64,000 nt of DNA. Source: Podarcis pityusensis (taxonomy: Eukaryota). Position 1 is the stretch's first letter. Each line of letters opens with the position of its first letter. A program made the translations under genes and the position numbers. The notes beneath the pieces were generated by a model. That model did no database searches. It saw only the letters and a program-made list of their open reading frames with translations, and was not told where the DNA came from. The stretch lies in NCBI GenBank assembly GCA_964106645.2, contig OZ067040.1; one strand, 5' to 3'. This document shows, one piece after another, positions 29,905 to 52,774 of the stretch.

Positions 29905-30039
29905 TAGTTCTTTACATTCTCCATATAATGTCTCTATTGTATATCTATATACACAATGTGGCAGCACTTCTGCAACACACCAAGTTTATTGAAAGAAGGG
30001 TAGGATACAACTGTAATAAATAAATCTCTCTATATTTAC

Positions 30040-30144
30040 CCTTATCCAGAAGAACCATATTCCCATGTTTCGAATTCCTGCCATTGAGGTGAATATAAAG
30101 TACATGATGATAGTAGTGATGAGGATATAATCAAGGGGGAAGAC
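30040..30144 (-). CDS. LMBRD1: LMBRD1 exon 12 (105 nt)
   Basis: VFPLDYILITTIIMYFIFTSMAGIRNMGIWFFWIR; ttctag / gtaaat. Confidence 0.97.
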
Positions 30145-30731
30145 CTAGAAGACAAAAAATAAATTAGAGTTTAAATTTCATGAAACTCTTCCAGTTTAAA
30201 ACACAATCCCTCCCATAATAAAATGACAGATGGGGAGGGGGCATACCAGGGCTAACTTAATTTTGCCCCAAGATTACATCTAATACACCAGGGGTAAAGA
30301 CTTTCACTGGTACCTGAGACACTATGCTTGCATTATACAAAAAAAAAAGTCTAATCATCCTGGAAGCAAAATTATGAAGTAAATGTGCAGGCACCTTCAA
30401 AGTAATTTATGTGAAATGAGCACTATTATGGTACAGAGGAATGTTCACTTGCTGGTGGGGGTATCCGCCTCAAATTTTGAGTTATGCCTCTGTGGCAGCC
30501 ATTTTCTCACTGGCATCCTCAGCAGTCTCTCAAAATTCAAAATGTGCCCAGTGGCAAGTCCAGTAATATACCCATACCAAAACCCCAAAGGTCTAATTCA
30601 TATGTAATGCCAAAATTAACCATGGCCTGTACGAACGTATTTGCCTCTGTTTAAACAATAACCTTGTTTCACTGGAGAATTCACTGAAGAGTTACCATTG
30701 GCATTACAAGCTTCCATTATCTTTTACTCAC

Positions 30732-30834
30732 AGTTTGTAGAATGGGTAACAGCATATTCAATGGATTGGTCAAATTTGTTCCCAGGATTATAAATCCAGT
30801 GTCGATGCCAGCTGAGTGCAGTGCTTTATCCAAA
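30732..30834 (-). CDS. LMBRD1: LMBRD1 exon 11 (103 nt)
   Basis: LDKALHSAGIDTGFIILGTNLTNPLNMLLPILQT; caacag / gtgagt. Confidence 0.97.
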
Positions 30835-30901
30835 CTGTTGCAATTTCAAAAAAAGAGATTATTTCTTGATTTTTGAAAACACCAGCCCTACATACAGAGT
30901 A

Positions 30902-31083
30902 CAGGAAACTCCCTTGTTTGCACGGGGGTTGTGTTCTGAGGCACCGCACACGTCAGTGGACCGTGTAAGCCCACCCCACCCTGTTCTGCCCTTGTCCCCA
31001 CCCCACTCACTTCCGGGACTGCAAAGGGTGTGCGTGCTAGTGGTCGAGGGCATGCCAAACGCATGCCAACGGGGAGCTGCCTG
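30902..31083. mobile_element. Old CAGG-terminus MITE, second copy
   Basis: TIRs CAGGAAACTCCCTTGTTTGCA / CAGGCAGCTCCCCGTTGGCA, TA flanks; a third, inverted copy lies at ~36106-36286. Confidence 0.7.
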
Positions 31084-32050
31084 TACTTTGTCCGAACTTT
31101 AGTGTCATAATTCATTCTGCAACACTTACTCATATTACCAGACCAACCTGAAATAATCCTGTTTCATCTCTTGAGTTGTATCGGGGTGAAGATTCAAAGT
31201 AAAGAAGTTCTAGCTAATGTGCACATAACTGTAGGCTGCCTCCACGGACAAACATTGCTTTGAAAATAATTCTGGACATTTTGCCAGGACCCTTTCCATT
31301 CTTTCAACCACCGCCCCAAGACCTCAATTCCTTATTAGTGTGGAGAATCACAGGGGAAATATCTTTTGAGGAACCCATAAACTAGGAGTGAGTTTAGACA
31401 ATATTTTTTTCCCATTTCATAGCCCCCCTGACTTCTTTTCATAGGCTCAAATCTAGTTGCAGCATATTAACCATTCCAGCCCACACACATCGACTAGCAG
31501 CCCATATATTTTTTGACAAGGCAGAATTATGCACATTATGCCACTGACATCTGTTTTAAAAACTGAATTTGCTGCAAATTCTAGGTCACCTTTTCATAGG
31601 TAACAGCTGCCTACCTATACATATTCACTACCTGAATATCTCCATATTGCAAGCAAATCAGGAATGGTTCCCTAGAAATCTTTATTCAGTTAAGAGTGTA
31701 TACAGGCATTCTTCTTTTCTTTTAGTTTTTCAAGATCAGTTCGAGCAAGTTTTGCACAATATTTTACTTCAGTGTATATGCTGATCATCAAGAACTAAAA
31801 GATGCAATGCAGCAAGTGCTTGCTTTGAGCGAAACACATTGCAATAAGGGAAAATTCGAAAGAGAGATGTAATATTTAATAAACTGTGTTCACTTCTGGA
31901 TTTAAACCACTGGATTCATATCCACTCTCAATTTTGGGGTGGTAAACGAGAAACATATTCACATGAAAGGTTAGCGTGAATTCCACTTTGCAAGTAATAT
32001 AATTTCACACAGCCTCATTTTTAAATGTAGAAAGCACACTATAAACTTAC

Positions 32051-32115
32051 TTGGACAAGAAGAGTGAAATAACAAACAGCAGGGCCACCAGGATAAAAAA
32101 TATTCCCCAGACAAT
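32051..32115 (-). CDS. LMBRD1: LMBRD1 exon 10 (65 nt)
   Basis: IVWGIFFILVALLFVISLFLS(N); ttttag / gtaagt. Confidence 0.97.
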
Positions 32116-32165
32116 CTAAAAGACAAATTATTTATTTAATAAAAAATAAGTATATATCACTATAG

Positions 32166-32488
32166 CAGGGGTGGCCAACTCCGGAGAGATTGCGATATAC
32201 TTTCAAAATTAAAATCTGGCAGTGATCTACCCTCAAAATTGTTGAGCTTTTTTGGGGACTTTTTTTGCAGCTCTTCTGAGGGAGGGAAGAACAGAAGCAG
32301 CCACTAATCTTACCATCGCTGGCCAGATAACAACCTCCATTTCTAAACTCTGACTTCCCTTCTGTAACAATAGAGGCCGGCGCAAGGAGAGGGGGCGGGG
32401 CCAGAAGGGGGCCAGTGATCGACCACGATCTACCAAAACCTCACAGGGATCGACCAGTAGATCGCAATCGACGTGTTGGACATCCCTG
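32166..32488. mobile_element. hAT (Charlie-like) non-autonomous element, 323 bp, perfect 8-bp TSD
   Basis: TIR CAGGGGTGGCCAAC / CAGGGATGTCCAAC; CACTATAG at 32158-32165 and 32489-32496; subterminal GATCGAC/GATCTAC repeats. Confidence 0.93.
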
Positions 32489-33085
32489 CACTATAGCATA
32501 AAAAATAGCAAACTGCTTCACAGTTATGTACACATATTATAAAAACACATACAAAATTTGAAATCTGACACAATCAACTACGTATTATGGAAAGATGTAT
32601 TCTTAATTGCCTGCATAAGCCTGGCAGAATAGAATAGTTTTCAGCAGAAGTTTAAAGGGTGAAATTGAAGGAGCCTGATGAATTTCTACTGGCAGAGAAT
32701 TCTACAGAGCTGGAATGGGGACACTAAATCCTCTATTTCATGTTGATGTCAAATGAGCACCACCAACTTGGGGAACAACCAACGACACTGCTGCAGATGC
32801 TCTGGAGCTGGGATATAAAGGTTTAGGTGGTCTCCAAGGTACCTTGGACCTAAGTTGTTCATGCTTTGTAAATTCTAAGCTGTCACTGAAACTCGTTTTC
32901 TCAATGGCACCTATGGCTTGTGCTGCATGGGTTCATTTTCAAGTACCATCAGAGAGGGCAATCCAAAAAAGATATTTAAAAATAGATGTTATAAAATGAT
33001 GAATACTTAAAAAAAACAAAACACTGCAATGAGGAAAGCATCCCTAATACAATTTCTTACATGCATCTCATTAAATTGTAGCACA

Positions 33086-33131
33086 TTAGTGTGGCTGGGG
33101 TACAAATAATAAATTATTATTATTATTATTA
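33086..33131 (+). mobile_element. Extremely truncated L2 tail with 7-bp TSD TAGCACA
   Basis: GTGGCTGGGGTACAAATAATAAAT(TAT)n flanked by TAGCACA at 33079-33085 and 33132-33138. Confidence 0.75.
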
Positions 33132-34467
33132 TAGCACACACGTAGCCCTTGCGCAAGCAGCTTTCAAGAACTTGCTAAGCTGTTCTATGGTCTCCACAAT
33201 GGCAGACCCCACAGTACCATGCAGAATGAGCAGGAAGATTTTAGAAAATTACCCCTACCACAACAAGTGTGTGAAAGTGACAAACATTTAAGCAAACATC
33301 AAAATGATGCAGTGTAGCTAAAATATCCCTTCTGTATATCCAAAGGTTCACACACATTGAAATTCAGCTGGCCACTGAATTTAAGAAATTTTACACTGAG
33401 GAGATCTGCTTAAGAGAAGTGTTTTTTCTGAAACTACATAGAAAGAGTGGGAAAGCAACAAGAAGTCAAACCTACACACTTACACAGTAAAATAATGGCG
33501 TGTAATAAAGACTGAAAAGTGTTGCCTGGCTTCTTGGCAATCTTGTTTTTTGTTGTTTTTTTTCAAAGCAATATTCTCTGAGCAATTGAAGCCACAAGAT
33601 AAATATATTCATTTAAAGATTGAGAGCACAATGCAAGACCTTTTTTCAAGATAAATTTTCAGTGGAAGCTCTTAATGAGCTGCAAATACCAAATGTAGAA
33701 CTCCATATGTTCACTGCTATTCTCAAATGTTCACAAACAAAAAGTCACAGTATCTGTTTTGAAATGGGGGGAGGGGGAGAAATCACACAGATCAAATATC
33801 TATAACTCTAGAGAATGACCGCCACTCTCCAAGACAAAGTGTTTGTTTATTGTAGGAATATTCTGGGATGAGTGCATTTTGTGTTACGTGAACTACAGCA
33901 GCATAGTAATAAATGCCATTTTTCCCAATTTGTACTAGCTTTCACTTGCTACCTATCAGTGAAAAAATGAATGTTAACTAAGATCATGGTGCATTCCAAG
34001 CAGTGTGCTGGTTCAATTTTAGATCATGCAATTAAAAGGAAAACAGCATAGGCAGTATCAACGATAACCGGAGGTCACTTTGTAAAACTTTCCTACACAA
34101 ATGTAACTTGTATGTGTCCCAAATTATCATCTACCCTCTATTTTTCCTGCAGGAAGATAGCCTTGAGTGAAGTGGCTCCCAATAGCTAGATGCAAACAGA
34201 TACACAATTTTATTGCAATAAATTACAAAAGGGGATGTGGCAGTTAACAGAAAAGGCTAACAGGTGCCATGAAAATTTACAAGCCCCTGCTATGTGCACT
34301 TTCGCTACACATGGTTACCACAAACTGAGACAGTCACATCGAACCAGTAGGCACACACAGACACCGCCCAATGCTCAAAAAAACCAAACTACTATTACAA
34401 CAGTGGATTAAAGCTCAAGTTTGCATTTGATCAGCTTCTGCATAATTGCAACAGCAAATACCAAATG

Positions 34468-34513
34468 TAATAATAATAATAATTTTATTATTTATACCCC
34501 ACCCATCTGGCTG
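34468..34513 (-). mobile_element. L2 3' tail fragment
   Basis: Reverse complement CCAGCCAGATGGGTGGGGTATAAATAATAAAA(TTA)n matches the 5027-5095 tail. Confidence 0.75.
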
Positions 34514-34655
34514 GTAGTTGGCATGCCAAAGAGAACTATGAAATTAAGTTCTATACGACAACGAAACAGCATAGAAATTTAACAGTCCAGGCTTTTCTAC
34601 AGAACTAAACTTTTGGTGCAAAATCAAACATAATTAGCCTGTATTCTACCTAATT

Positions 34656-35010
34656 AAGGTAAAGGTACCCCTGCCCATACGGGCCAGTCGTGTCCGACTC
34701 TAGGGTTGTGCGCCCATCTCACTTAAGAGGCCGGGGCCAGCGCTGTCCGCAGACACTTCCGGGTCACGTGGCCGGCGTGACAAGCTGCATCTGGCGAGCC
34801 AGCGCAGCACACGGAAACTTTGTTTACCTTCCCGCTAGTAAGTGGTCCCTATTTATCTACTTGCACCCGGGGGTGCTTTCGAACTGCTAGGTTGGCAGGC
34901 GCTGGGCCCAAGCAACGGGAGCGCACCCCGCCGTGAGGATTCGAAGCGCCGACCTGACGATCGGCAAGTCCTAGGCGCTGAGGTTTTACCCACAGCGCCA
35001 CCCGTGTCCC
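34656..35010 (-). mobile_element. Full-length Sauria SINE (Squam1-type), young, 11-bp TSD
   Basis: tRNA head GGGACACGGGTGGCGCTGTGGG (A box) and B-box-like GCTTCGAATCC; ACCTTT tail; CpG-rich; TCTACCTAATT at 34645-34655 and 35017-35027. Confidence 0.93.
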
Positions 35011-35304
35011 TAATTGTCTACCTAATTGCCAATATGCTATTATGTGTTTGTGGTAAAAGCTTTCGTGCTGGAAAAGGTCCTTGAAGGATATAAAGTGCAT
35101 GCTAACTTGTAAGAAGCTACTACTGCATTGTGTATATATACCAGATATCCAGAACACGTTATATGAAAAGAGCTCTAGGGAATGCTGAAGATGCATCCCT
35201 TAACCCTGGGCTTTTGACATTTGAAATGTATATTATTAGGATTCACTCTTTTTAATGTTGTGCTTTAAGTGTTGTAACTTGCCCTAGGACCTAAGAGTGA
35301 ACGG

Positions 35305-35307
<3 letters not shown>

Positions 35308-35334
<27 letters not shown>
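35308..35334. repeat. (GAT)9 microsatellite, probable LINE tail
   Basis: Direct observation; follows an L2-like 3' sequence. Confidence 0.9.
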
Positions 35335-35335
<1 letters not shown>

Positions 35336-36878
35336 GGAATAATTTATTAGGTCTGACCTCCAAACTAAACACATGACAAGTGTATACTCCTAAAAACTGG
35401 AAATACTATGCAGTTTCTATTTATCTTCAGTATTTTAAACAATCAGGATATTGCAAGGTCATTTTCTGATTGATTTGCATGTAACTTTTGTGTCTTTAGA
35501 TATGAAGAGGGTATTTTTAAGATGAAATAATACTTTTCTGGTGACAATTCAACCCAGATATGCTGAAAGGATCTCTGGTAGAAAGCATGCATATTGAAAA
35601 CCAGAAGTACTTTCAGCAGTATTCAGGTGTAATCCTGTTTATTTAAGTTCAAAATCCCCAGTGTCTTCAGGCTTTTGCTTCTACTTCTGCTACATACCTT
35701 CATTTCTCCACATTCGTGCCCTGATGCTTTTCTAACTCTAAATTCAATTTGTTGCTTATTTGTTCATCCTACAAGTCTGTTCACACATTTCTCCACCTGT
35801 CTACCCATCTTAATTTGATCCACTATTTGTCCAATTTTATCAGTAACTTCAACCATAAATCTTGCTCCTGCTTCCAACTTAGTTTATATAGTTGCTAAAT
35901 AGATTGTGACCTTGTGGCACTGCAAAACTGTCAATGGCTACAGTCCTAAGCATATTTCAAAGGAACCTCATTTCCAAGTAAATCAACAGAACTTTTTTAA
36001 AAATCAACTTTTTTAAAAAAAGAACTGATGTCACAATTATCTAGTGCTTATATAGTATAAATTCATCTATCTTCTACATCTTGCTTTTACTTTTGAATCA
36101 TAATACAGGCAGCAAGTGATTCAGGCATGTCCAAATGATGCGTGATCACACACACGTCACCAAACCCAAAAGTAGCCCCCTGATGTCTAAAGACATAATG
36201 AAAAGGGGCAGGGTGGGCTTACGTGCACTCAGCTGATGTCTGTGGGGGTTTGGAATGTAACCCCTGTACAAAACAAGGATTGCTTGTATTCTTTTAACTA
36301 TAAAAAGGCAGAAATAGTTGAAAACTGTGCATATAATGAATTGGCAGGTTCACAAGAGACCTGACCAGATTGATTTGTAAACAGTATGTTGTGCAAACAC
36401 ATTTGACAAAGACACATTACTGTTAATGTTACAAAATATTGCAAGTATTTATTTATTGAGTTTACTAAGTTGATTCTTTGTTCCAACCTAGTGTTAAAAT
36501 GGAAGTCCATCCAAGTAACATCACTGCCTATTTCCCCCTACATCTTGGCAACATAAGCACCATTTTCTATCGTAACGGACCATTTCTGTCATTCTTAAAG
36601 ACTTATTTGAACTTTAATTAGTATAATCTGCCCCAGAATCTTTGGTCTATAGAGTTCTAGTCTTATCCTGCTTACCAACAACCTGGGAAACTAAAAGTAT
36701 TGATTTTTGTTTGTTTGATTTGTTCTAAAGATGGATAGTGTGAAAACATGCGTAAAACGTCTCAGATGCAAAGAGCTGCTTTAAGGGAGCCCAAGGTGAG
36801 CAGGCCACATTTACCCACAGATACAGCAGATTTTGAAAGCCATATCACAAATGGGCTATCAGGGTGAGCAAACTGTTA

Positions 36879-37146
36879 CAGTGGTACCTCGGTTTTTGAA
36901 CTGAATCCGTTCCGGAAGATTGTTCCTAAATGTTCAAAAACCAAAAACTCAATACAGGAGTCTCAAAATGGAAAAGTCAATATGGAAGCCGCATGGCATG
37001 CTCGACTTCCGATGTGCATTCAAAAACCGAAGCATTTACTACCAGGTTTACAGCATTCGAAAACTGAAGCATTTACTACCGGGTTTACGGCATTCGAAAA
37101 CCGAAATATTCATCAACTGAGATATTCAAAAACCAAGGTACCACTG
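36879..37146. mobile_element. Tigger/pogo-like MITE, 268 bp
   Basis: 22-bp TIR CAGTGGTACCT(C/T)GGTTTTTGAA, TA TSD. Confidence 0.92.
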
Positions 37147-37157
37147 TACTGCAATTA

Positions 37158-37340
37158 CCGTATTTTTCGCACCACAGGACGCACTTTTTCCTCCTAAAAA
37201 GCAAGGGAAAATGTGTGTGCGTCCTATGGAGCGAATGCAGGGGGGAGGCAGGCGGGGAAAGCCCCCAAGAGCTGCACACAAGCTCCGTGCGCTCTTCCGG
37301 GCTTTTCCACAGGAGGGAGAAGGGACTGACTGGCCGCATC
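37158..37340. mobile_element. Truncated relative of the 13585-14084 MITE
   Basis: TA-CCGTATTTTTCGC...GGAAAATGTGTGTGCGTCCTATGGAGCGAATG matches its left ~80 bp; no right TIR found. Confidence 0.8.
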
Positions 37341-37585
37341 AACCTATAGCCTTAGAGCTTTCATGGGGCCCTCAGTCCAAATCTCATGTTGGTGGCAAGG
37401 AGCGGAAAAAGCACGGAGGAAGAGAAGGGGAGAGATAAAAAGGAATGATCTATCTACCTCAGGCTCTGGGACCACCCATTACTGGCATGCATTGTCAAAA
37501 AAGGACTTTAAATTTGTGCTCTAACCAGTTAGTGGTTTTACATAATACAGGTATACATTAAAAAAAATTACGTGCTATACTTTAC

Positions 37586-37738
37586 TTTTAGTGGCCTCAT
37601 GGCTCCACAGAATCTTGTCCAGCAGCTCTTCTCAATATATTCCAGACGCCTCCCTCTCCTTCGAAGGGCTCTTAGCTTGTCCTCAAGCTGTTGCAGTGTC
37701 CGCCTATCCCGAGTTGGTAGAGGCCGACCATCTTTGCA
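37586..37738 (-). CDS. LMBRD1: LMBRD1 exon 9 (153 nt)
   Basis: CKDGRPLPTRDRRTLQQLEDKLRALRRRGRRLEYIEKSCWTRFCGAMRPLK; cattag / gtaaag. Confidence 0.96.
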
Positions 37739-38832
37739 CTAATGGGGGTTGTAAGGGGGAGAACAAAAGATGTAAATCTTGAAGTTTGAGTTTGTATTTT
37801 TCCATGGTTGTTTGTGTTCTTAATTCAAAGATATCCAGTATCTCATTTTAGCAGCTATGCCATTTAAAAAGGGTTCCACTCAGTGGTTTGTTTCTGTCCA
37901 GTATGTAATACCAGAAGCTTTGCTTCCCCCTGCTATTCCCCTCAGACAAGCCTTCTTTGCCCATGCTGGGGCTTGCTTTTAAAAAAATGGCGGGAAAAGG
38001 AACACAAAAGAGTGTGTATGTGCGTGCGAAAGATAAGTGTACTGTGGCCACATTGAATTATTTTCCCTGCTGCCAGGAAATGCTCTCTGTAATCAGACAA
38101 TAGCATTGTTTTGCATGTAGGAAAAATCAATATTGTGTGGTCTCCACAATCAGAATCAGTACTTGGCTGACTCCGTATGGCAAGCATAAGGTGGGGGGGG
38201 GGGGGGGGCACAGCAATGGCTGTACTCTAATTTTGTACTATGCCACATCCTCATGGTCACCATTTTGTGCTATGCCATGCCCCCACAGCAGCAATTTAGC
38301 TCAATTTTTAGTTATTTGACACTCAATAAACATATTTATTATGTATTCTTGATTTATTATCATCAACCTTCTAATAAAAAATGATCACAAATACAATAAA
38401 GACGTGGGAGAGGGTGCAGGAAGTGGCGGAGCGGAAGAGGTATTTTACCATTTATCATGATATAAGTACCAGCACCACATTTAAAAAACAACAACAACAA
38501 CCAGAAAAGCACTAATTCTACTCAATAAATCACTTGTTCTAGTAAGCATATGTGGAGAGATATTTTTCTGATCTAAGAGTATCAATCCAATTATAAAGTC
38601 TCAAAAATGTCCTCTCTGCAAGTGCCTCACTGAAAAGTGTGTGTGCTTAGTACTCATATTTTTAGAAGTGTGAAAATTATTGAAACTTGTAATACCACTG
38701 CCACAGTTAAATCAAAAGAACAGTATATAGCAGGAGAGGAGAGCTAATAGTTACCGTTATATACAACTGTGAAGATTCATTTTGGTTATTTCAATCTCAC
38801 TAGATATACATTACAGTATATACTTTTTAAAA

Positions 38833-38945
38833 ATTAACAACAACAACAATAATAATAAATATTTATACCCACCCTCCCCAGGCCGGGCCGGGCTCAGGGC
38901 GGCTAACACCAAATATGAATTACAATAAAACATAATAGAAGAAAA
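38833..38945 (-). mobile_element. L2-like 3' tail, different subfamily
   Basis: Reverse: TTAGCCGCCCTGAGCCCGGCCCGGCCTGGGGAGGGTGGGTATAAAT plus (TAT/TGT)n tail. Confidence 0.65.
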
Positions 38946-39387
38946 ACCACCACCACCACCACCAAACAATTGAGGTAAGGTGAGGCGACCACCTCGGGCG
39001 GCAGGATGCACAGGGGCATCAGATCCCAATGGATATATTTATTCCCTCCTTGTTCCTGATGCAGACCTTCACTCACTCCTCCTTCTCTGGTGGGAAGGGG
39101 AAGGAAGGGGCACCATTTTGTGCTTTGCCTCAGGTGCCAAAATGTCTTGAGCCAGCTCTGCCCTCTACCCAATCTAAACATATATTTCTAAAGATTTTAA
39201 ACTGCTCACATTGTTAAATATCAGAGCAGGGTACAGAAAGCAAAAGATAAGATACATATAAGAGAAAATACAGGTCAAGTCACAACAGTACAACACCTAA
39301 TAAATGGATGAAAATTAAGAGAGCCTGTTTGACCAGAGAGCTAAAGCTGTTAAAAAGCAATATTTTAAGACAGAAACCCAACCAAAC

Positions 39388-39513
39388 CTTTGATTTAATC
39401 CTTTGTATACTTTGCTCAACCTCTTCAATATCTTCAGTGTTTTCCAAGCGTTCATAACTAGCATTTCTTGTCCCCTTTATCAGGTTCAGAGGCAAAGCGG
39501 ACATGCCATAAGC
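39388..39513 (-). CDS. LMBRD1: LMBRD1 exon 8 (126 nt)
   Basis: AYGMSALPLNLIKGTRNASYERLENTEDIEEVEQSIQRIKSK; ccccag / gtttgg; contains the YERL sorting motif. Confidence 0.97.
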
Positions 39514-40204
39514 CTGGGGGGAGGAAATGCAAAGATGGTTTTAATTCTCAATTGTAAGTGATCACCTTGACACAAAACATTGATCAGTATCCTAGAACCA
39601 ACACAGAAAGTAGTTGTTTTATTCATATTCTGCCCATCAGACCAATCTCAGCACGATATAATGAATATGGTATTGGACAACTAGTGGGTGCTTAGTTAGT
39701 CAAACAAATTATATACCTCTTAACTGCAACAATCTCTACCTCAATCATCTTAGAGATCAATGGAGGATGGAGGAGAAACTTAGCATTTGGAAGACAATTA
39801 ACTATAGCTGGTATGAAAAACTGTAGCTACTTATTCAGACGTGCTGTAAATTTTGAGAAAGGAAGGTTACATGCTCAGCTGTAGTCCAATTTTAGAGGCT
39901 GAGGAACTTGGCAAGCAATAAAGCTGCAAAGGGATACAGTACAAGACTGGCAGTAGTCCATAAGAAAAATGGAAAATCTTATAAACAAAAAAAAGGAGAC
40001 TGCAAAATTATAAAAAGCAATAAAAATGAGGACTCTGTACATCTAAGGAAAGGGGAGAAAATAAAAAAACTGGCAGTTTGACAAACATAGATAAAGTATA
40101 CAAGTTTCTAGAGCAACAATTCTTTTTTTAAAAGTTGTAGGAGACGAGGAAGGAGAAATGAAAGACAGGAATGAGAGAATAGAAATTCCTTGTGGAATGG
40201 TTTG

Positions 40205-40765
40205 ATCGTTTTCATATTTTTTTTTACTATATATAACAATAACACGAACAATAAAATCGGCAACATAAAAATTCAGTAGTCAGCAACGTAAAAATTCAGT
40301 ACAACCTTCTGCTTATGAGAGCAAAGAAGTAGATAGGTAAATGGGTCTGTTGTGGGGTACAGGCAGGCAGTTGAGGTAATGAGCAGAAGAGAATAAAGGT
40401 CTTATCACTCTACACTGCTAGGGGTTTGTTCTCATTTGTTAGTTTATAAATGGCTAGTATCTCCATGAACACCTCATAAAATAGGTATAGATTCCAGAAG
40501 CGGACATGCTATTTTGGCACTTGTGCATCTACATAATCCTTATCAATAAAGGAAAGAGTCTTGCCAAGTTTTATGAAAGGAGTCTGCGGCTTTGTGGTTT
40601 CTTGATGTCCTCAAATGGTTTGTTAGTTCTTCCATAATAGTTAGGTTTTGGGGGTTTTAAAACTAAAGTTGGATGGTGAGTTTCCCAATGGTCAGTAATC
40701 GTGAGATAGTGCTGCCATCAACATTTCTTTAGAGGGAGCCTCTCTGTTGCCCCCCCGAGAAAATA
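40205..40765 (-). mobile_element. Degraded L1/Tx1-type LINE 3' end
   Basis: Frameshifted LTITDHW...IMEELTNHLRTSRNHKAADSFHKTWQDSFLY resembles the L1 ORF2 C-terminus; A-rich tail near 40217. Confidence 0.55.
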
Positions 40766-41420
40766 GAAAGTAATGCCTATATTTTAAAAACTAATTATTT
40801 GTAACCCACCGTTAATTCCTATCTACATGCCACTTTTCAGCAAAAGCAACATCATTAAGACGTCGTTAAAAAATAAAAACTGTAAAAACAATTAGTTCAC
40901 ACCCCAGATAAAACAGAAACCACAGCATTATTCACTAAAAGCCTGGGCAAATAAGTTTTGAGCTGGCATACAGAGCTCAGTTGCCTAGCACCTATGTAAC
41001 TATTTGTAGGGAATGTGTTCCACCACAGATAAAGCCTTGCTCTTAATCTTCCTCTAAAGAAGAATTTAAGAACTGGAGCAAAGGAATACCTAGTAATTTA
41101 GAAAGCACATAAAATAAAGCCTGTGAAATGGAAAGAAAATGTTTAATATACCCTTCCCACCCCCACCCCCCAAAAGACAGTAACCTATAAAGCAATTCCA
41201 GTTATGACAGGAAGGGGTGGAAGAATTAAATTGAAGCGCAGGTGTTTTGTTCAAGATGAGTGACATGACAGTATATAGGGAGGGGAGAAGCTAACTTATA
41301 TTGGTCTTTAAAAAAGAAAATAACCATATATTTGAAAATACAGTATATTCCCAAGCATTAAAAAAATATAATACAGAAAGGATGAGTAAAAACAGACTAT
41401 GAAGCTTATAATAATCTCAA

Positions 41421-41458
41421 GTATCTGAAGAAGTATGCATGCACATGAAAGCTTATAC
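41421..41458 (+). ncRNA. Minimal type I hammerhead ribozyme motif (partly decayed)
   Basis: Stem I GUAU/AUAC, CUGAAGA, stem II GUAUG-CAUG-CACAU, GAAA, palindromic stem III AGCU, UH site. Confidence 0.7.
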
Positions 41459-41551
41459 CAAGAACAAACTTAGTTGGTCTCTAAGGTGCTACTAGGAAAT
41501 TTTAAAATATATTTTGACTGTGTCAGACCAACACGGCTACCTACCTGAATC
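41422..41551 (+). mobile_element. Penelope-like element pseudo-LTR piece with 12-bp TSD
   Basis: AATAATCTCAAG at 41410-41421 and 41552-41563. The interior (CTGAAGAAGT...GAAAGCT...GTTGGTCTCTAAGGTGCTAC...AACACGGCTAC) has the vertebrate PLE pLTR layout. Confidence 0.85.
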
Positions 41552-41599
41552 AATAATCTCAAGGGTTATTCAAAATCTGTTAGCATTTGGTCACGAGTA

Positions 41600-41825
41600 C
41601 AGTGGTACCTCGGGTTAAGTACTTAATTGGTTCCGGAGGTCCGTTCTTAACCTGAAACTGTTCTTAACCTGAAGCACCACTTTAGCTAATGGGACCTCCC
41701 GCTGCTGCCACGCCGCCGGAGCACGATTTCTGTTTTCAGCCTGAAGCAAAGTTCTTAATCTGAGGTACTATTTCTGGGTTAGCGGAGTCTGTAACCTGAA
41801 GCGTATGTAACCCGAGGTACCACTG
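41600..41825. mobile_element. Tigger/pogo-like MITE, 226 bp
   Basis: Perfect 18-bp TIR CAGTGGTACCTCGGGTTA, TA TSD, repeated TAACCTGA motifs. Confidence 0.93.
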
Positions 41826-44800
41826 TATGGGGCTTAATATTATTTAAGATGAGGTGGCAACAGGTTGCTTTTCCTCTTTAGACAAGAGAAAAGGCTTTGC
41901 TTCTTCAACTCTCAGAGCAGCCTGGTGGTGTTCCCATTTGCTGCAGAGTGGCCCCAAGAGCAGGATGCTATGTCATGATGTAGAATCATTCCCAAGAGAT
42001 TATTTTCCATTTTGGTGCTGGTGGTGGAATATTGTAAGAGGTGAAACCCAACGATACCAGGTATTAATATCAGTCGAAAGTAGAGTGACAAAAATGTGTG
42101 AAAATAGGTTGCAGTTTGGGAGGGGGGTTAATAGCATTTCTAAATTATACTGAAGGGGAAAAACTTGGAACTGTTTATCAGACAGTAAAGATATACAGCC
42201 ATAAACTGTACAACCCTCCAAGGGTAACTGAGGAATGGAGGCTGTTTATCCAGAAAGCAAAAGCTATAAAAATGCCAGAAGCAAAGATGGCATGTATGTG
42301 CACACACATTATTGAAAACTAAAAAAAGAGGAAACGGTGTAACAGAAATGAGATCATGGTGATAAATCCTGATACGAATTATGTAAGTAAATAACAATAA
42401 GGCACTGGGGCATTTCCCACTCAAAGAAAAATTTCTTTGGACTATCTCAAATTCTCAATTGACTCAAATTTTATCAGCCAATTGCATCTCCCTCTTTTCA
42501 GTTTCGTTTTTGAAAATAAATTTTCCACTTACCCAGGATCAACTGCACTGCTGTGGAAATTCAAAAAGAGATAAATGGCGTATCACAGCTGTATATGAGC
42601 TCCATTTTACCATCTATATCTTACAACAGTATTGCTCCTTGACTCCAGCTAAGCCTATTGAATTGGCAGAGTTTAAGGCCAAAATATAAGTAACTCCTTT
42701 ACTCTCATACAAGCAGCATCCAACAAAACTGCCTTTATTCACGGAACAGCAGCTCTCCAGAGCCATACTCCCATAGCTTGTGAAATGCCAATTTCAAGCA
42801 GAATATTGCAAAAGGGATCTGGCCAAAACTATTGATCTTCTCCATCATCAGTTAAGCTAGGGCCTTAAAACTTTGCATGAGAAATTGGTAGTGATGGACA
42901 ACCTGTTTTTTCAGGAAAACTTGAATACCATTTTCTCAAAGTCCGCCTTTCATCTAAAACTGGCTGCCCAAGATGCTTACAACAATTAAAAATCCATTAT
43001 TAAGATAAAAAAAAAACAAGGACTAAGGAATATATGTGCATAAGGCTCTTTATGGCAGTCCATATTCCAGGCCTTGCCCTATGAAGAGGGGGCAGAAGGA
43101 GCTGAAGGGTAGACTCAGGCACTGGCTGAAAATAAACACGCCAACCTATGGAAGCAGCCCTTTCCTTGGCTTGGTCCCTTCCTCACAGAAGCTGGGCTGC
43201 AATCTCAGATGGAAAACCTCTGATTTAGAGCACAAGAAAATATACTGGCAGCCACCGCTTAGTTTTGATTAAAGGTGCAATGCTTGTGCTTTTTGTTCCA
43301 GTACTAGTAAATATCATAACCATTAAGTCCCAACAGCTACTAATAATGCCCATTTTCCAAATGTGTGGCAGTCACTGAAAGTGCCACTTGTTAATTAAAC
43401 CTGTAACTTCAAGTACAATTACTGCTTGGCAATAACTGTTGTGTTTTGAAATGAATACAAACTATTTGTTAGGTTTTTTTAGAATGCATAACATGCAATT
43501 TTAGACTATATAAAGCACTAAACTGAACACAAAATACTTTCAAGATGCAATTCCTGCCCTGCAATATATTTACTGCCCACATCTGCCCTCTAGCGAAGCT
43601 GCACACAATACACAAGTAGCACAGGAAGGTGGTGAATAAAATCCCTGTTACATTGAAGTTGATGCAAGCTGTGTCCATTTTTTGAATATGTAAAGAGCGT
43701 TTCTAAATAGAAAATGCTGCCTTTTGTCTCTTAATCTCTTCAGTAGGAAAATGATTCCATTTCTGAATGGCTATAAGCTAACCTGTAGTGAAGACGACAA
43801 TTCTCAAAAGGTGAGAACTATGCAGTCCATCATTTGCACATCTTCTCTATTAATTTTTTCTAGCAGAATGACAGCAAAAAAATGAAGGGGCTCAGCTTTC
43901 CTATGTAACAAATATGCACTAATGTGAACATTTAGAGGAAGGATCATTTGGATCATAAATTTAGCAAATGCATAAATAAAAAAGAAAGAGTACAGTACAT
44001 AGAAAATAAGCCTTCCGAAATGTGGCAAGGCAGTTGATGCAGGGGGGAAACAGAACAGCCTTAGACAGCCCTGTATGAAGGAATTGCTCAATTCTGGCAT
44101 GCTCGGCATAACAAAAAATATTTGCTGCTAAGAGAACTTGTTCCAAAGAATAGAAAGACATTTCACCTGTGCTTCTCTACCACATGTGTTGTGAAGGCAG
44201 TAGCAGAATCCAGACTTCCCTTGACTGTTATCTATTGTGTCTACCTTAAGGTTTCCTACCTTAAAAGTGTCTGTTCATGATCATGATACAACACACTGTG
44301 TTCATACACATTGACAGTCCCTACATCTTAACCAAGGACATTTTCTCAATACATGTCAGATTCCTTCAACAACAAAAATCTAAATCCTTCTCCATTGTTT
44401 TCCTTGGATCTCTGTGCCCTCCATTCCCCCCCCCCACTCTCCACAATGTATTTTCATTTAGACCACAAGCCTATGATCAGTTTCCGAAGTTATTTGTATT
44501 ATCTTTTTCCTGATTAAATAATTATTAATTTAAGCAAATGTATTGCACGTTTTGGTAGCATAGTTGTGAACATGCACAGTATGATTAGAGCACAGGACAA
44601 TAGTAGTAAAATAATGTATCTTGCTGTAGTCTACAGTCTCTCGTTTCCTCACATGGTACCACCAGCTCCTTGAGAGATCAGGCACTAGAAAGGATGGGAG
44701 GGGATTCTACCTGAATTTACACTGCTATACAGAAGAAATAATATAATGAGAATATGTTAAGAGTCCAAAGATCAAGTTCAGTTTAAGTAGAAGATATGCA

Positions 44801-46406
44801 TTACGAAAGTCATACTAGTTTACTAGCAATATTATCCTATACTTGGCAGACAAAACATTCAATTACAGTGCAATTACACGCCCATGCCTGCCTATTGTAT
44901 TTCTGTAGCCTTTCAGGGAGAAATATCAATTGAAAGAAACCCCACTAGATATTAGGGCATCCCCAGAGCTATGCAGAATGTACATGTCCTCCCCAAACTT
45001 AGTTTGCCCAAAAGGACAATGATACAATTTAATATTCTAATAATTTTAAACTATGCTGACATTTACAAAATGAATGATACATTTTGTAGAATAATTTAAG
45101 GCAAGTAAAGTATTGGCTATCACAAAGTTTTTGTGAACTAGTAATAACGGAAAAGGTCACTTAAAAGTTGCAGCCTACATATTCAAATGTATCTTTTGTA
45201 TTTTTGCATCTTTTTAATCAGCACTGGAGTGCTTACCTACAGTGACATTTTCATAGAGATGCAAACATTATTAAATGTTTTGGAAAAACTAAAGCCACTT
45301 ACATGTACCCTTCAAGAACAAAGAAGCAGGGGAAAGAATCAATCACGTTCATCACAGCAAAAGCTATACTGTTTTACCTTGACTTCAAATAGCAGCACAA
45401 AGCTGGTGAGAGGTTCACTACTAATACCCAAGGTTATCTAAAATCATTTAAATGCAGAATATATTTAAAGCAAGCAATGTTTGTGATACAGCTTCTAACA
45501 AAGGGTAACAGGTAGCCATGTTAGCCCATAAGAAGAAAAAGAAGCAAAATCCATATGATTTATTAGGACAAACAAAATGTCACAAAATATACAAGCTTTT
45601 GAGTTCTCCAGCAAACAAGGTATTAAAAAAGAGAAGAAAAACAAAGATTGTTTGTTGTCAAGCCATCTATGTCTGCATCTGCTCCCTCCTCCCACACTCT
45701 TAAGACTCTTGTATTTTAACCATCTGGCCTGTTGAAGAGTTCTGGAGTAACTGCAAGCTTGCACCCTACTTCATGACATTTTGGTTGGCCTAATTAGCCG
45801 ATGGGGTTTCTAGCCAGCCCTTATTTATCATTTATGGTGAGGCTCCATGTTTAGAGGTGGTTAACGTGAGTACAAGTTAAGGGCAGATTTGTGGAGTGTC
45901 TACCCTTCCGTATCCCAAATATAAGGAAAATATTGCTACCGTTCAATCAAAATATGAGAGAGATTCAATTTTGGCTGTGAAAGAAATCAAAGTAACATAT
46001 ATCCTGTTAAACACTGCAATGAACAACACACCAGGCCAAGCAGTAAACGTTTTTTCTAAAAACGTTTACACTTGCACAGAGATTCCTTGCGAAGAATACA
46101 ACCTAGCTCAACTGGATGGTTTGCTGGATTTCAGAAGTTTGCACAGGAAGGCCCCAAGCTTAACAGTGTTTCAAAATGGTCCCTTAAGATCACTCACATC
46201 TCATAAAGTGTTTTGAACAATAGCATAAAAGGCCTGCAAAATCAGACCAATGGTCCTCCTAGTCCAGCAATGTACACCTTAACTCTGACGGTAAGGAGAC
46301 CACAAGAAAAAAATAATCTGTGTTCATAAATGAGGCTCAAAAACAAGCAAGCGAAACCTTTGCACACATAAGCCCTACCACCACAACCATTGAATGAACA
46401 CACACA

Positions 46407-46440
46407 CAAACAAACAAACAAACAAACAAACAAACAAACA
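46407..46440. repeat. (CAAA)n microsatellite
   Basis: Direct observation. Confidence 0.95.
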
Positions 46441-47729
46441 GCAAACCGATAGGTGAGCACAAAGGCACCCTTCCCACACAGAAAAGCCACTTCTCAATAA
46501 CGCAATCCCATGGCACTGGGGAGTTTTTGTGCTGTGTGTGTATTTATTAAACAATCATGTGGGTGGATCCAACTGCAGGGGTCTTACTTCCTCAGGTGGC
46601 GAATACATCAAATGAAAAATGCTTTTTAAACGCTAGGATTTTGTATGCATTCATGTGCTTACACACATTTTCTCCATAAAACTCTTAAAAGCGCTGCAAA
46701 TGTAAGGCAGCATATGTTTATTTCCATCACACAGACAGGGAGTATGGTAGAACTGGAAGAAGCATAATTGCCACTCACCGATTGTATTTTGTTTTTGTTT
46801 TTTTAATAATGCAGCTTGCAGTGGACGTGTGCTGCTGGCCAATGAGACTGGTATAAAGTTCTCTAAATTGTTCTTTGCTTGACGAAGGAACAGTTACCAG
46901 AATAAACTGTTTATATAAGTATTAAAAGATTACTTTGTGAAACAGAGCTTGCTATAGTGAAAGCTTTTAATCAGTAAAGACTTTGGCCAAGATGCTGAGA
47001 AGGTCAATATTCAGAATACAGAGATCTATAACCGTAATCCCACTTCATACCCTCAGCTCTGACACATTGACTTAGGGATGGCATCAAAATTCTGCTGACT
47101 ATAGTGTTGAGTCAGGAAGACATCACATCTGCACAATTCATTTTAAAACCTTTCTCTGCCAAGGTACTAACTTTTGAGAAACTGCAACCATAGTTTACTA
47201 CCATTTTAAGGCAAGGAACAAAACTTATTCACACATGAACATATATATTTAGAAGAATTTAGATCATTCTTTTATCATCTATCACCGTTTCTGTCATCTA
47301 GAAACTCTAAAACAAGAGTTTACTATTTAACAGATTATAATCTCCACAAAATTCTTAGGTTCATCAATACTTCTGACAGGAATCGTAAAGCTCAATCATG
47401 CTCAACTAAATCAGGCTTCATGGTAAAAAGCTGCCACTATGCACAATGTTAAGAAAAGTGTTTTAAACAGTTTTGAAAGGGAAAGTATTTAATGGGGGGG
47501 GGGTTCCAGAGTCTAGACATTTTCTTTTGAAGGCTAAAGCATAATAGAGACACGAACTAAACTCGAAAACATTTACCTGCAACTCAACTATTCCAAGTCA
47601 CATTTGTTACTCCAACACAACTGAAAGCATTGGCTTTCAGTATAGATTAAGGTCTGCGAAAAGACTTCCAAGTTGTTGCAGCTGAAGCAAACCTCAAAAT
47701 GAACACAAGACAAAAAGATGAATACTTAC

Positions 47730-47803
47730 TGTATATGTAACAGCTGCCACCATTCCAATAAGGGTCAAAGAACTTATAGAGAAGGATAAGGCTGCCAAAC
47801 CAT
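47730..47803 (-). CDS. LMBRD1: LMBRD1 exon 7 (74 nt)
   Basis: (H)GLAALSFSISSLTLIGMVAAVTYT; ttacag / gtaagt. Confidence 0.97.
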
Positions 47804-47898
47804 CTGTAAGACAAATGGGAAATGCTTTGCTGAAATTCACATTAAGGAACATTTGTTCCCTCCCCCCCCCCCCCCTTTTTCACTGTGTGTGTCATCTT

Positions 47899-48262
47899 TA
47901 AACGTAAAGGACCCCTGACAGTTGAGTCCAGTCGCAAACAACTCTGGGGTTGCGGTGCTCATCTCGCTCTACTGGCCAAGGGAGCCGACGCTTGTCCACA
48001 GACAGTTTTTCCGGCTCATGTGGCCAGCATGACTAAGCCGCTTCTGGCGAAACCAGAGCAGTGCACGGAAACGCCGTTTACCTTCCCGCCAGAGCGGTAC
48101 CTATTTATCTACTTGCACTTTGACATGCTTTTGAACTGGTAGGTGGGCAGGAGCTGGGACCGAGCAACGGGAGCTCACCCCATCGAGGGGATTTGAACCG
48201 CCGACCTTCCGATCGGCAAGCCCAAGGCTGTGTGGTTTACACTACAGCGCCACCCGCGTCCC
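47899..48262 (-). mobile_element. Full-length Sauria SINE, second subfamily
   Basis: Head GGGACGCGGGTGGCGCTGTAGT, B box GGTTCAAATCC; body collinear with 34656-35010. Confidence 0.92.
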
Positions 48263-48732
48263 TAGGAAACAGCATAAACAGATATAGAAACATATGCACA
48301 GATCAAAAATAAAATTTCAGCTGCAAGGTTATTCTAGACACAGGACTTACAATATAAATGCTTTTACCATCGTCCAACACAATGGAATGACAGCCTAAGT
48401 AAGCAAAACGAAGAGTACACCGTCATGACGTTAAGAGTTTAGAAAATCAATGTCAGCAGTTGTTTCTGGCTGCAGGTTTTTGCCTTAAAATTTGGCATTC
48501 CCTGCATCTAGCCTTTCTGGGGTCATGAATGTGGTCCATGTGGGCACAGTGAAAAAGTGACCAATGGGGATAGTGCCCAGGACACTCTCAACATTCCAAA
48601 CATGTAACTCCTTGGAGCAACACTATAACTTACAAGATTCTTAAAGATGAATGGAATAGTCCAATGAAAACTTAATGTCTTATTTGGAGTAAGGTTATAC
48701 AAAATTATTCACTTCTTAGGTCTCTAACTTAC

Positions 48733-48821
48733 GGCTGCTTCCAAGCTCTTCAAACAAAAGTTTCACTTTCTCCCATTCCGTTGTATTTTTTTGGTTAGGA
48801 ATATTCAATGGAACAAAGGCT
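48733..48821 (-). CDS. LMBRD1: LMBRD1 exon 6 (89 nt)
   Basis: AFVPLNIPNQKNTTEWEKVKLLFEELGSS; tgttag / gtaagt. Confidence 0.97.
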
Positions 48822-50692
48822 CTAACAAGGAGGAAAAAATAAAAATGTTATTCTCTGATAGTTACTTTGCAAAATACACTACATCAAGAATACAAATGGT
48901 CTTTACAATACTAGGATGGTGACAGGGCTGATCCACATTACCATGGAAATTTTTACAGCCTTCTGCACTACATTTCGGTGTTCCTAACAAAAATGGTTTG
49001 AAAAGATTAACTCCATATTGATTTCACAATATCTGGTGACCAAAGCAGAGGTTTCTGAAAAGCCAGTCAAATACAGAGAGAGTGAACATTTCAGAACATC
49101 AACTATTTATTGAAACTGAGCTTTGCTACAGTTTGTGACAAATACAAAGAGATACTCAACTAATGCTTACTAAGAGGAAACCTTCTGAAATCATTAATTT
49201 AAGTTACTTGTGCACACTAATTTCAATGAGTGAGAACGGCCAACATTGGCTATCAACTAAAAACACTTAAAAAGACTATGAAGACCAAACCCTTCCCAAT
49301 AACCCCCCTCCCAAGCTTTGAAGGCATTCCTAAATTAAATACAGAAAACAATCTACAAAGCTAAAATGAGGGAATTTTATGTCAAAGAAGGATGCACACA
49401 TCTGCGTGGCACTGAAAGCAAGCATTTTAGCTGACAAACAACAGCTGCGCCACCAACACCCACAGACTTTACAATAATGAGCTGCTACTGCTAGCGAGGG
49501 AGCCTAACTTTGTCCCAGCACACTTCAATCTAAGTGGCGGTACAGGGATGAGGAGAGTTTAACTATTTTAACAATATTGGAAAAGTAGCTGATGCAGCAC
49601 AATGGACACTGTTACTGGAGTTCTTGAGAATACCTAGCATGCTAGAAGAATTACTGCATCCAGTGATAACCAGCAGCATCAGTTGCCTTCCCTTGAAACA
49701 CTGATTGATTGGATGCTCATGATCTTGGCTCATTAAAACGAAATATGAGCCTTTGACCACCATGTAGCCTCGTCGCAAAAGCAAGAAAACAAACCAGGAG
49801 GTCTTCCCTTAACCAAAGCTTTCCATGTCAACTGAACCGGGGGGGGGGGGGCGGGGAACCAGCTTCAGAACAAGACAGGAACTTAAACCATTGGAGGTAG
49901 CTTAATATCCAAAGCCAGGCAGGACTCAAATTCTTCTAAGATCCCTACTGTCAAGGGTGATGATTAAAAATCATTGAGATTAGTAAATGGAGGAGAGAGA
50001 AAAGAAAAACCCTGCTCACCATTCTCTTTATGATGAGAGTACATTTCCTTTTCCATGACAGCATGAAAAGCCGTCTCGCCTCCAAGCTCAGGAAGGGGGC
50101 AGAACCTCGTCCATGCCATGACATTAAGCATAAGGTTGGTAAGCTGCAGACTACCTGCTGAACTTTGAAATAGGCAGCACCAACTTACTGCTGCACTTCG
50201 GACGTGCTTTAAACATCTCAAAAGTTCAGTGTGAACAGATTCATGCCACTAAGGGAGGAGCAAGGTCTGGAAAGCAGAGATTTTGGCTGGCTACCAAGAC
50301 CAAACAACCTTGGTAAATTCCTGAGCAAGACATGGTATTTTAGATACTGCTTGTATTAGGAGGGGAGAAATAGACACACAAATACATGGATGGAATATGC
50401 ATTAAAAATATTTAAAAGTTTCGTAAGAGGGATGAAGTGCAAGTTCAAAGCTGAAAGAGAAGCAGCAGAGAGCACATATAAGAAACAAGAAATTTGGAGA
50501 AACAAAGAGACAGAGCATGAGACATAGATTAGGGAAGAGATAAGAGGCAAGATTATAAAGAGCTTTAAAATGAGAATTGGTTAAATACAGATTTATGGGG
50601 GCTGATATATGAGAGGCAGGTGGTGGTCATTTCAGCAAGCTTGAAAACTACAACATCTTGTGGTATTAGAATGCAGAAACATAACCACTTAC

Positions 50693-50760
50693 CCAATTAG
50701 TAGAAGAGCAGAACAAACCAGAAGAAATCCTAGAGTATACTTGACTGCAATTTTAACCTG
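50693..50760 (-). CDS. LMBRD1: LMBRD1 exon 5 (68 nt)
   Basis: QVKIAVKYTLGFLLVCSALLLI(G); ttacag / gtaagt; tandem CAGCAG acceptor. Confidence 0.95.
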
Positions 50761-51907
50761 CTGTAAAATTAGAACAAAAAGTAAGAATATGTAGAAACTA
50801 ACAATATCTTCAAGCTAATTCTGCCTACTGCATCTGTCTGGATGCCCCACAAAACAGATTTTTTGAAAATTTATATTGAAAATTTAAAAAATTCTCAAGG
50901 ATCTTGATTTCTTCCTGTATATCATTAAATTAAGGTTAATTATGAACTTTTATAAGCTCTGCAGTTCAAGGACAAGATTCAACTAATGGGTCCCACCAGC
51001 TTCTGCTTGCACATTGGGGTTTTCCTCTCCTCCTCCTCCCACCCACTGCCCAAAACTGTCTCTGGAGGGGTTGGGAGAACCCCTGGAACAGCACACGGAG
51101 GAGGGGGGAATTGTTTCCTCTGGAAAGCCAAAATGCTTTCCTGACAGAACAGTAAGAAAAGTGTGACTTTGAATGTCCAATATGCATTAGGCATGCTGTT
51201 TCATGCAGCAAGCACATCAAATGGTACCAATCTTCGCTGCCACTATTTCAGCACAGTTTCTTTAAAAATGAGTAATCTGCACTGCAAATATCTACTACAT
51301 AACAATGGAAAATGAAGAAAGAAAGCTCATTACTGGAAGAGCCTTCTGGATATTTTCCATTAAAATGAAAATGAAAGTTTCCACAGTATTTAGGTTCTCA
51401 TCAATAAAAGAGGATTATATTTTACTTCCAGCTGTTAATTCCTGTTTTCTTGCTTAAGACAATATATAGTTTCTTTAAACTAGAATCTCTCTGTCCCCAC
51501 CATTTAAATAGGGATGTTTTGGTCCCATTTACTTTTTGGCGCCACAAAGGCACTGTTGTCAAGTCAAAGAGGAGAAAAACACAATATTATTTAATGCAAT
51601 AAATTATTCTCACCCTTTAAACTGATTAAATACATTCACATGTAGCTTCTAGAGAAGCACATAAACAGGTCACTCTGTGGTGGCCAAAACTGCTTTCTGT
51701 AGAAATAATTTTTGAAAGCACTTTATCAATGAAAAATTTACTGCATTAATTACTATCCTGCCTCAAAAGTCACGATCGCCAAGCATTTTATAGAAGTACT
51801 GTGGTTACTGCTGCATCTATTCACAAACAGACTTCATGAGCATTTATATACACACAAGTCAATCTCCCTTCACTGACTGTGTTTAGACATGATACTAAAC
51901 CATTGTT

Positions 51908-52064
51908 AAACATAATGTAAGAAGAGTCTTGTTGGGTCAAACCAAAGATGTATCTAGTTCAGCAGTCTGTTCTCACAATAACCAACCAGATGCCTGTGGG
52001 TAGTCCATAAACAGGACCTGAGTGCAATAGCACTCTCCTTCTTGCATTCCCTAGCAACCTATTA
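51908..52064 (-). mobile_element. CR1 LINE 3'UTR fragment
   Basis: AAGAAGAGTCTTGTTGGGTCAAACCAAAGATGTATCTAGTTCAGCA resembles the squamate CR1 3' tail; related pieces at ~28155-28260 and ~46215-46272. Confidence 0.6.
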
Positions 52065-52676
52065 CAAGGTGTTGAGATGGTGACCATCTCAACACCTTGA
52101 AATAGCAAATGCCACGCAGTACATTTTTGCTTCATTTTCCAATACTGCACAGGAGAGAAACAGCAGGTCTAAGCAACCAATCTAAAACTATCTGCTGTGC
52201 AGTTGTACTTCCTTTTGCCTGTACTGAATTTTCAGATATTAAAATTCACTGTATTTTGAACCAGCTAGAGTTCACATACCCTCTTCCTCTGGCATGGCTG
52301 CAAGGAGATTAGAAACGTTCTCTTTCATTTTAGTTTAGCGTGTCACTTAAATTCTAAGCTGTGGTTAATCTTAACAATGGTCAGCTGAAAACAACCAACT
52401 TCATACACTATGTGTTAAGGGTTTACAATGGGAGTTCTCAAAAAGCCAGCACATTTCTTAGCTCAGGATCTACCTGGTGAGCCTCTAAGTAGGTTAACTG
52501 ACAGATTAAGTCAATACAATTCCCAGTACTGGCTTCAAGCATCAGCACTGTATTTTACTTTTAACACTGGACAGCATTTAATAAGATTTTTTTTCAGCTG
52601 TCAGTAGAATAAACCAGAACCTCTTTATTCACTAGATGTCCAAGTCAAGCAATCAGAAGTCCTATAATCATCTTAC

Positions 52677-52774
52677 TGAGCATGTGTTGCCATCATCTTC
52701 ATCCTTCTCCTCGTAGTAGAAGTAGACAAAGGGGATCCATAAGAACACACAAAATAATATGATGGAATAGAGTG
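52677..52774 (-). CDS. LMBRD1: LMBRD1 exon 4 (98 nt)
   Basis: (T)LYSIILFCVFLWIPFVYFYYEEKDEDDGNTCS; ttctag / gtaaga. Confidence 0.97.

Follow-up and report, generated by a model that had tools for sequence, protein, structure and literature searches.

The insert and its genomic context

The window, i.e. the whole 64-kb stretch of Podarcis pityusensis DNA that was analysed, harbours the gene LMBRD1 on its minus strand and, in one of the introns, a short insertion on the plus strand. The features of the locus are as follows.

27766..52772, minus strand: host gene LMBRD1, delimited by the outermost exons tested; the insert is intronic and antisense to it
41410..41421, plus strand: left target-site duplication (TSD), 12 bp, the most frequent TSD length in the family; its last G is also element position +1
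41421..41551, plus strand: short insertion of Penelope-like type that spans element positions +1 to +131 (older subfamily A)
41421..41458, plus strand: minimal type I hammerhead motif, assigned by sequence, fold and the definition in PMC4209133
41497..41515, plus strand: variable A/T tract
41512..41551, plus strand: 'tail' of ~40 nt, between the two start regions found in the family
41552..41563, plus strand: right TSD, 12 bp

The 12-mer at 41410–41421 is repeated exactly at 41552–41563, with a spacing of 142 nt. It occurs twice in the window, and its composition-based chance per site is 1.9e-7. The initial annotation had described a perfect 12-bp TSD around a 130-bp insert (41422–41551). The exact repeat confirms this description with one refinement, namely that hammerhead stem I and the left TSD overlap by 1 nt, the G at 41421 being both the first base of the former and the last of the latter. 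We numbered the element from this G, such that 41421 is +1 and the insert ends at +131. The proposal that the sequence arrived as a short unit, flanked by a TSD of its own, and is not the remnant of a deletion also holds.

Three exons (52677–52772, 48734–48820 and 27766–27828) match human LMBD1 and flank the insert on both sides. They are located on the minus strand and the insert on the plus strand, as expected from its described antisense orientation. Pfam did not recognise the LMBRD1 exon, which was recognised via PDB sequences.

An empty orthologous site had been suggested as a check. Contigs from four runs, carrying three organism labels, pass from the unique flank into the insert and reach 16–46 nt into it, and one of them satisfies the 31-nt bridging rule (>31 nt into the insert). 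The entry of these contigs into the insert suggests that the insertion predates the split of the three organism labels. Among 15 listed joints of 99 there was no empty allele and no joint that skips the insert.

Another very high-copy repeat, MITE-like, is located at 41596–41827, 33 bp downstream of the insert. It has 25-nt inverted ends that are 92% complementary and internal repeats of 17–23 nt. Repeats of this type also adjoin several other copies of the family (loci L022, L037 and L169).

The hammerhead motif of the window copy

The motif comprises a 4-bp stem I (41421–41424 paired with 41455–41458), the core CUGAAGA (41425–41431) followed by one extra A, stem II (41433–41446) and GAAA with a loopless, self-complementary AGCU that forms stem III (41447–41453). 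Ribozyme cleavage is predicted between 41454 and 41455. This is the anatomy first described for the insert, and the core motifs, stem I, the extra base and the palindromic stem III are those of a minimal, dimer-type type I hammerhead, with cleavage as a prediction. The short stem I, the extra base before stem II and the loopless palindromic stem III are likewise found in the minimal hammerheads of metazoan Penelope-like elements (PLEs), mostly dispersed single motifs attributed in that report to truncated elements (PMC4209133). In contrast with those hammerheads, the window copy has lost the conserved G10.1–C11.1 pair (PMC4209133). Stem II had been described as weakened, and it is: with a G–U closing pair and an A–C mismatch, it does not fold alone (0.0 kcal/mol, versus −4.1 kcal/mol for two intact copies). 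The lack of a stable stem II concerns the window copy only, since stem II is intact in most of its relatives. The numbering applied to the window copy follows general usage and PMC4209133.

Scanning the insert with Rfam, a check proposed at the outset, gave no hammerhead match at E<=10, and neither the hammerhead region nor the whole insert folded better than shuffled sequences (z +0.7 to +1.6). In view of these two results, the identification of a ribozyme rests on the motif match and on the family context.

Two observations concern stem II. A promoter-linked arm at G000:C3:67321116 shares both stem II changes with the window copy; instead of being private decay, these changes may thus have been inherited or have recurred. 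The 14 nt of stem II form a perfect palindrome in subfamily A (e.g. locus L045), and computed dimers pair via stem II and not via stem III (−32.8 kcal/mol). Such pairing could compete with the active form.

The parent element

A search of the same genome with the insert yielded 2199 candidates, of which 40 were scored. As this first set, obtained with the full-length query, was biased, the statistics on copy ends come from 3'-anchored samples instead. The last 26 nt of the insert, present exactly at 471 places in the genome, served as the anchor for subfamily A, and a 30-nt anchor with 2013 exact matches defined subfamily B. The A sample comprises the first 90 listed places (91 arms) and is blind to the 5' end, and the B sample comprises the first 90 of the 2013 matches. 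Both therefore represent the first listed places, on chromosomes C1–C3, each anchored on one exact 3' motif.

A reverse transcriptase (RT) fragment beside one copy led to 309 candidates, and 20 loci were examined. The full unit of the element, from the young subfamily B, is 3010 bp long. Two of the 20 loci have a stop-to-stop frame of 951 aa and four more have frames of 921–944 aa; the intact frame corresponds to 910 codons from the first in-frame ATG. In this single ORF, Pfam identifies RVT_1 and, at the C terminus, a GIY-YIG domain, the latter with a score of 21.8 bits, just below the cut-off of 22.6. The window unit is 86% identical to positions +1 to +125 of young subfamily B. The tail of subfamily A enters the same reading frame, as seen at 10 genome-wide exact-pattern matches, and one subfamily A copy extends to +471 at 87%; we found no intact subfamily A element. 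The Penelope origin first proposed for the insert is thus borne out by the match of +1 to +131 to an element whose sister subfamily has an RT and GIY-YIG frame. Altogether, the family displays the pseudo-LTRs (pLTRs), the inverted 5' arm, the one-ended tail of 30–40 nt and the TSD of EN+ PLEs.

The translation of the element contains a CX4CxxC motif in the linker, which fits the combination of CX2-5CxxC in the RT–EN linker and CCHH in EN that characterises the Neptune clade (PMC8557442). The CX2-5CxxC linker motif is described for Neptune and Nematis and not for Poseidon (PMC8557442). Judging from this motif, the element would be of the Neptune type, although the motif also occurs in Nematis. 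The label 'Poseidon' was considered and dropped, because the linker zinc-finger motif, whose absence marks the Penelope/Poseidon clade, is present.

Positions at which the copies begin and end

For 67 of the 90 subfamily B copies, the 3' end of the anchored arm falls at +129–131. The inverted arm that lies outermost starts at +78–98 in 57 of 61. In the window copy, this second start region (~+78 to +98) lies at and just 3' of the A/T tract (41497–41515). The tail (41512–41551) runs on into the reading frame in ORF-linked copies. The B sample comprises 53 short copies with an inverted arm, 13 short simple, 22 promoter-linked and 2 ORF-linked copies (n=90), the corresponding numbers for A being 53, 25, 11 and 2 (n=91 arms).

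The 5' ends pile up at the first bases of the hammerhead, ~30 nt 3' of a TATA box. The furthest 5' point falls between −5 and +5 in 45 of 88 B copies (two ORF-linked copies being outside the filter) and in 37 of 91 A arms. Among segments that end between −24 and +60, the same interval holds 73 of 126 in B and 40 of 124 in A, an excess over a uniform distribution with p values of 6e-35 and 2e-9, respectively. TATA-like motifs start at −33 in both subfamilies and at −31 in A only. A T precedes 22 of the 23 ends at −2, and for many of these a partner arm or microhomology provides an explanation. Subfamily A, with both TATA registers, has mostly +1 ends (e.g. locus L056) and subfamily B, with the −33 register only, has more ends at −2 to −4 (e.g. 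locus L142), the numbers being small.

The initial annotation had offered a choice between a retrozyme and truncation, with 5' ends scattered into the ORFs as the sign of the latter. We found no such scatter but a sharp cluster at the inferred RNA start, and copy ends located at the RNA start of an autonomous element represent a third option.

Ordinary 5' truncation, in which reverse transcription from the 3' repeat stalls or is joined at the hammerhead and +1 is a structural stop, nevertheless has to be considered. Copies that extend from the 3' repeat as far as the promoter region, or further, do occur: 22 of 90 in B, primed at the 3' repeat and running through the promoter, and 11 of 91 in A. 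Other ends are scattered over +6 to +60. Nevertheless, the pile-up comes after the whole structure has been copied and not at its 3' foot, the ends lie ~30 nt after the TATA motifs, and some copies join +1 to internal ORF positions, which is what jumps from the end of an RNA should yield. An excess of G specific to +1 (see below) also argues against a structural stop, even if snap-back on stem I could account for the extra base. We regard truncation as unlikely.

It is very unlikely that the insert is a solo repeat produced by recombination or deletion, or a copy of a spliced RNA with its acceptor just before the hammerhead. Solo pLTRs derived from recombination are known in rotifers (PMC3846280), but the promoter part would then remain, and the window copy has none. 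As for splicing, a pyrimidine tract and CAG precede −1, and the intron of Drosophila virilis Penelope ends at helix I (PMC4209133). A constant upstream exon would, however, be expected at −1, whereas ends at −1 are rare (3 of 157 and 4 of 168 segments) and have unrelated sequences upstream. A splice acceptor as the origin of the 5' boundary was rejected on these grounds.

Some less frequent arrangements were also observed. Where copies continue past the tail, most of them end at +167 to +210 (loci L185, L208, L233 and L161–L170), often followed by another unit start, as if a cDNA that had arrived at the RNA end had jumped back to this region. RT-coding fragments are joined directly to unit +1 at different points (loci L005, L015 and L021), which is consistent with template jumps. 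A second class of short copies runs from +1 to ~+90 with its own TSD (loci L270, L287 and L288) and matches the second start region.

An extra G often precedes position +1

Genome-wide, 1150 arms start exactly at +1 after a non-element base. An extra G precedes +1 in 677 of them, compared with 31% expected from flank composition. There is no such excess at −3, where a hand count gave ~25 among the first 100 of 259 arms. An extra G at the 5' junctions of full-length L1 copies has been read as copying of the cap (PMC11702581), and by analogy the extra G at +1 likely stems from cap copying. The base is also complementary to +39, and several junctions are compatible with microhomology. Its source could thus also be a snap-back of one base on stem I, or else microhomology with the target or with the partner arm; for these reasons, we grade cap copying as likely and no higher.

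Short and long copies belong to the same family

A TSD of at least 8 bp was detected for 66 of 82 scorable B insertions, with a mode of 12 bp (8 insertions that extend past the fetched DNA were left out), and for 29 of 91 A arms, the shifted control giving 2 in each case. In subfamily B, TSDs flank short, inverted and promoter-linked long insertions alike. The 12-bp TSD is the usual footprint of the family and not the mark of a separate element. The tabulation of boundaries and TSDs proposed in the initial annotation reveals fixed ends, and TSDs that are shared with the long copies.

We compared haplotypes using distances and a permutation test on the 115 of 181 sampled arms that are long enough to be aligned with the window copy. 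The main B haplotype is common to 24 short and 16 long copies. Variants of the window copy are also found in promoter- and ORF-linked copies, and a hand count of the first 100 among 329 promoter-linked arms found its block of variants in ~19. The distance between short and long copies is in excess in both subfamilies (p=0.0055 in A, p=0.03 in B), and the two nearest copies to the window copy are both short. Such a skew would be expected if several source elements differed in their output ratios; a cryptic lineage of short copies keeps a low probability. Haplotypes being shared, with a small skew remaining, we found no lineage of short copies apart from the autonomous partner. A deletion variant considered as a short-only sub-lineage was rejected, since the first 30 of its 92 matches contain 26 insertions, of which 3 are promoter- or ORF-linked.

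These data bear on the proposal that the insert is an independent ribozyme retroelement of retrozyme or SINE type, whose transcription and mobilisation would both concern a 130-nt unit. It would account for the fixed ends, the own TSD, the absence of an ORF and the dominance of short forms (78/91 in A, 66/90 in B), and the slight haplotype skew is in its favour. A preprint, moreover, derives animal retrozymes from Penelope pLTRs (10.64898/2026.07.22.740005). If the ribozyme made the ends, they should coincide with its cut site, but no segment starts at +34 to +36 (0/157 and 0/168, i.e. 0/325, for ~7 expected if starts were uniform). The window locus holds a single unit and no head-to-tail array, and the sampled copies contain only short local repeats: two offset forward arms including ORF sequence in 3 of 90 B copies, and three short tandem inverted arms in one. 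The sharing of haplotypes with long copies, and the promoter- and ORF-linked members of the seemingly short-only variant, argue in the same direction. Finally, no promoter is evident in the unit: the TATA region lies upstream, outside of it. An internal promoter is described in D. virilis Penelope (PMC2377424), and one may likewise exist in this unit. With ends unrelated to the cut, no array, the TSD of the family, shared variants and no TATA region, we consider a non-autonomous retrozyme- or SINE-like element to be quite improbable and this part of the initial annotation to be unsupported.

A possible origin by run-off of cDNA at a capped RNA end

We propose with good confidence that the insert, which is likely immobile, represents the first 131 nt of a Penelope-like unit, and that its likely template was the 5' end of an uncut, capped RNA. 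We infer from the DNA that the RNA starts, and carries its cap, at the first bases of the hammerhead. The insert would then span the interval from the RNA start to an internal start of reverse transcription. The element protein would bind near the 5' end of the RNA and cut the target with a 12-nt stagger. Reverse transcription would be primed inside the RNA at ~+130, and the cDNA would terminate by running off the cap, located at +1 (or −3). The second strand would usually be primed as well, at ~+90, giving the head-to-head inverted form; a single arm would have been kept in the window copy. Priming at the 3' repeat would generate the long copies, and by stalling it could also produce the same 131 nt. 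Since the hammerhead begins at the RNA start, it would be carried along as a passenger, and the ends would not be defined by the ribozyme. Devoid of the TATA region and of sequence past +131, the stub was probably dead on arrival and is probably not remobilised.

This scheme is modelled on the anole Poseidon element PAc. In vitro, the two strands of the target are each cleaved and extended, and reverse transcription begins at two RNA-internal sites that bound the tail. The reaction requires RNA beyond these sites and uses mainly uncleaved RNA as its template (PMC11167929). The ends in subfamily B (+129–131 and +78–98) match two internal starts bounding a 30–40 nt tail (PMC11167929). The run-off model would thereby be transferred, by analogy, from a Poseidon-clade element studied in vitro to an element with a Neptune/Nematis-type linker.

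A more specific reading, to which we give an even chance, is that the capped RNA starts at hammerhead base 1, that an enzyme dimer, with uncut sense RNA as template, primes both target strands at two fixed and different sites (~+130 and ~+90), and that both cDNAs run off the cap. The head-to-head inverted pLTR would in this joint reading be built without an antisense template, a point on which our confidence is equally divided. If this is true, the ribozyme would be a switch that removes the cap together with 34 nt rather than the maker of the ends, and the Penelope cycle would have left its fossil record across the genome in these stubs.

Comparison with known systems

As in anole PAc, the hammerhead is located at the junction between repeat and ORF, two internal starts would bound a tail of 30–40 nt, both target strands would be extended on an uncleaved RNA template, and no ends occur at the cut site (PMC11167929). 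The lizard element differs from PAc by its CX4CxxC linker of the Neptune/Nematis type and by its first in-frame ATG, at +98 or later and not in stem II (PMC11167929). The 5' pile-up, the extra G and the arm asymmetry are not described in the text of that report, but its Fig. S2 may show part of them.

With EN+ PLEs, including Adineta Pen2a, the family shares pLTRs with a TATA and an Inr-like motif, an inverted arm that is shorter by approximately one tail length, TSDs and head-to-head junctions (PMC8557442, PMC3846280). Head-to-head junctions are ascribed in PMC3846280 to self-priming on an antisense template, whereas both arms end here at the start of the sense RNA. Unlike the forms with inverted pLTRs, the window copy has a single arm.

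Non-LTR retrozymes are similarly small, devoid of ORFs, equipped with a type I hammerhead and related to PLE repeats (PMC7229834; 10.64898/2026.07.22.740005). Their tandem repeats give rise to linear and circular RNAs that extend from cut to cut (same two sources), and the hammerheads in PMC7229834 are canonical. In contrast, the window copy is a dispersed single unit, with ends unrelated to the cut.

PLE structure, the tail, the inverted arm and dispersed single hammerheads have already been described (PMC8557442, PMC3846280, PMC2377424, PMC6765202). We found no report of a +1 pile-up, an extra G or a short unit in PLEs in a search that covered sources other than subscription journals and Repbase. 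How PLEs build their pseudo-LTRs, tails and head-to-head inversions is described as undefined (PMC8557442). The thousands of ends, together with the G excess seen at +1 and the intact young element, lend support in vivo to the view that priming is internal and takes place on uncut RNA, and this support reaches beyond the single clade tested in vitro. Autonomous elements can generate dispersed, TSD-flanked hammerhead 'monomers' as by-products, and these features do not suffice for counting such copies as retrozymes.

The feature of the window is real and of an ordinary class. Taken singly, the insert is of little weight, being a decayed, antisense, intronic copy among thousands; the family data, with the family-wide map of ends, weigh more. 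The presence of intact young elements in the same genome makes the joint reading of run-off at the cap testable in a Neptune-type element. Young members of subfamily B include L142 (G000 C6, ~98.95 Mb) and L151 (C1, ~39.18 Mb). The RT-bearing copies of this subfamily are 98–99% alike and several have an intact frame; subfamily B has possibly been active recently.
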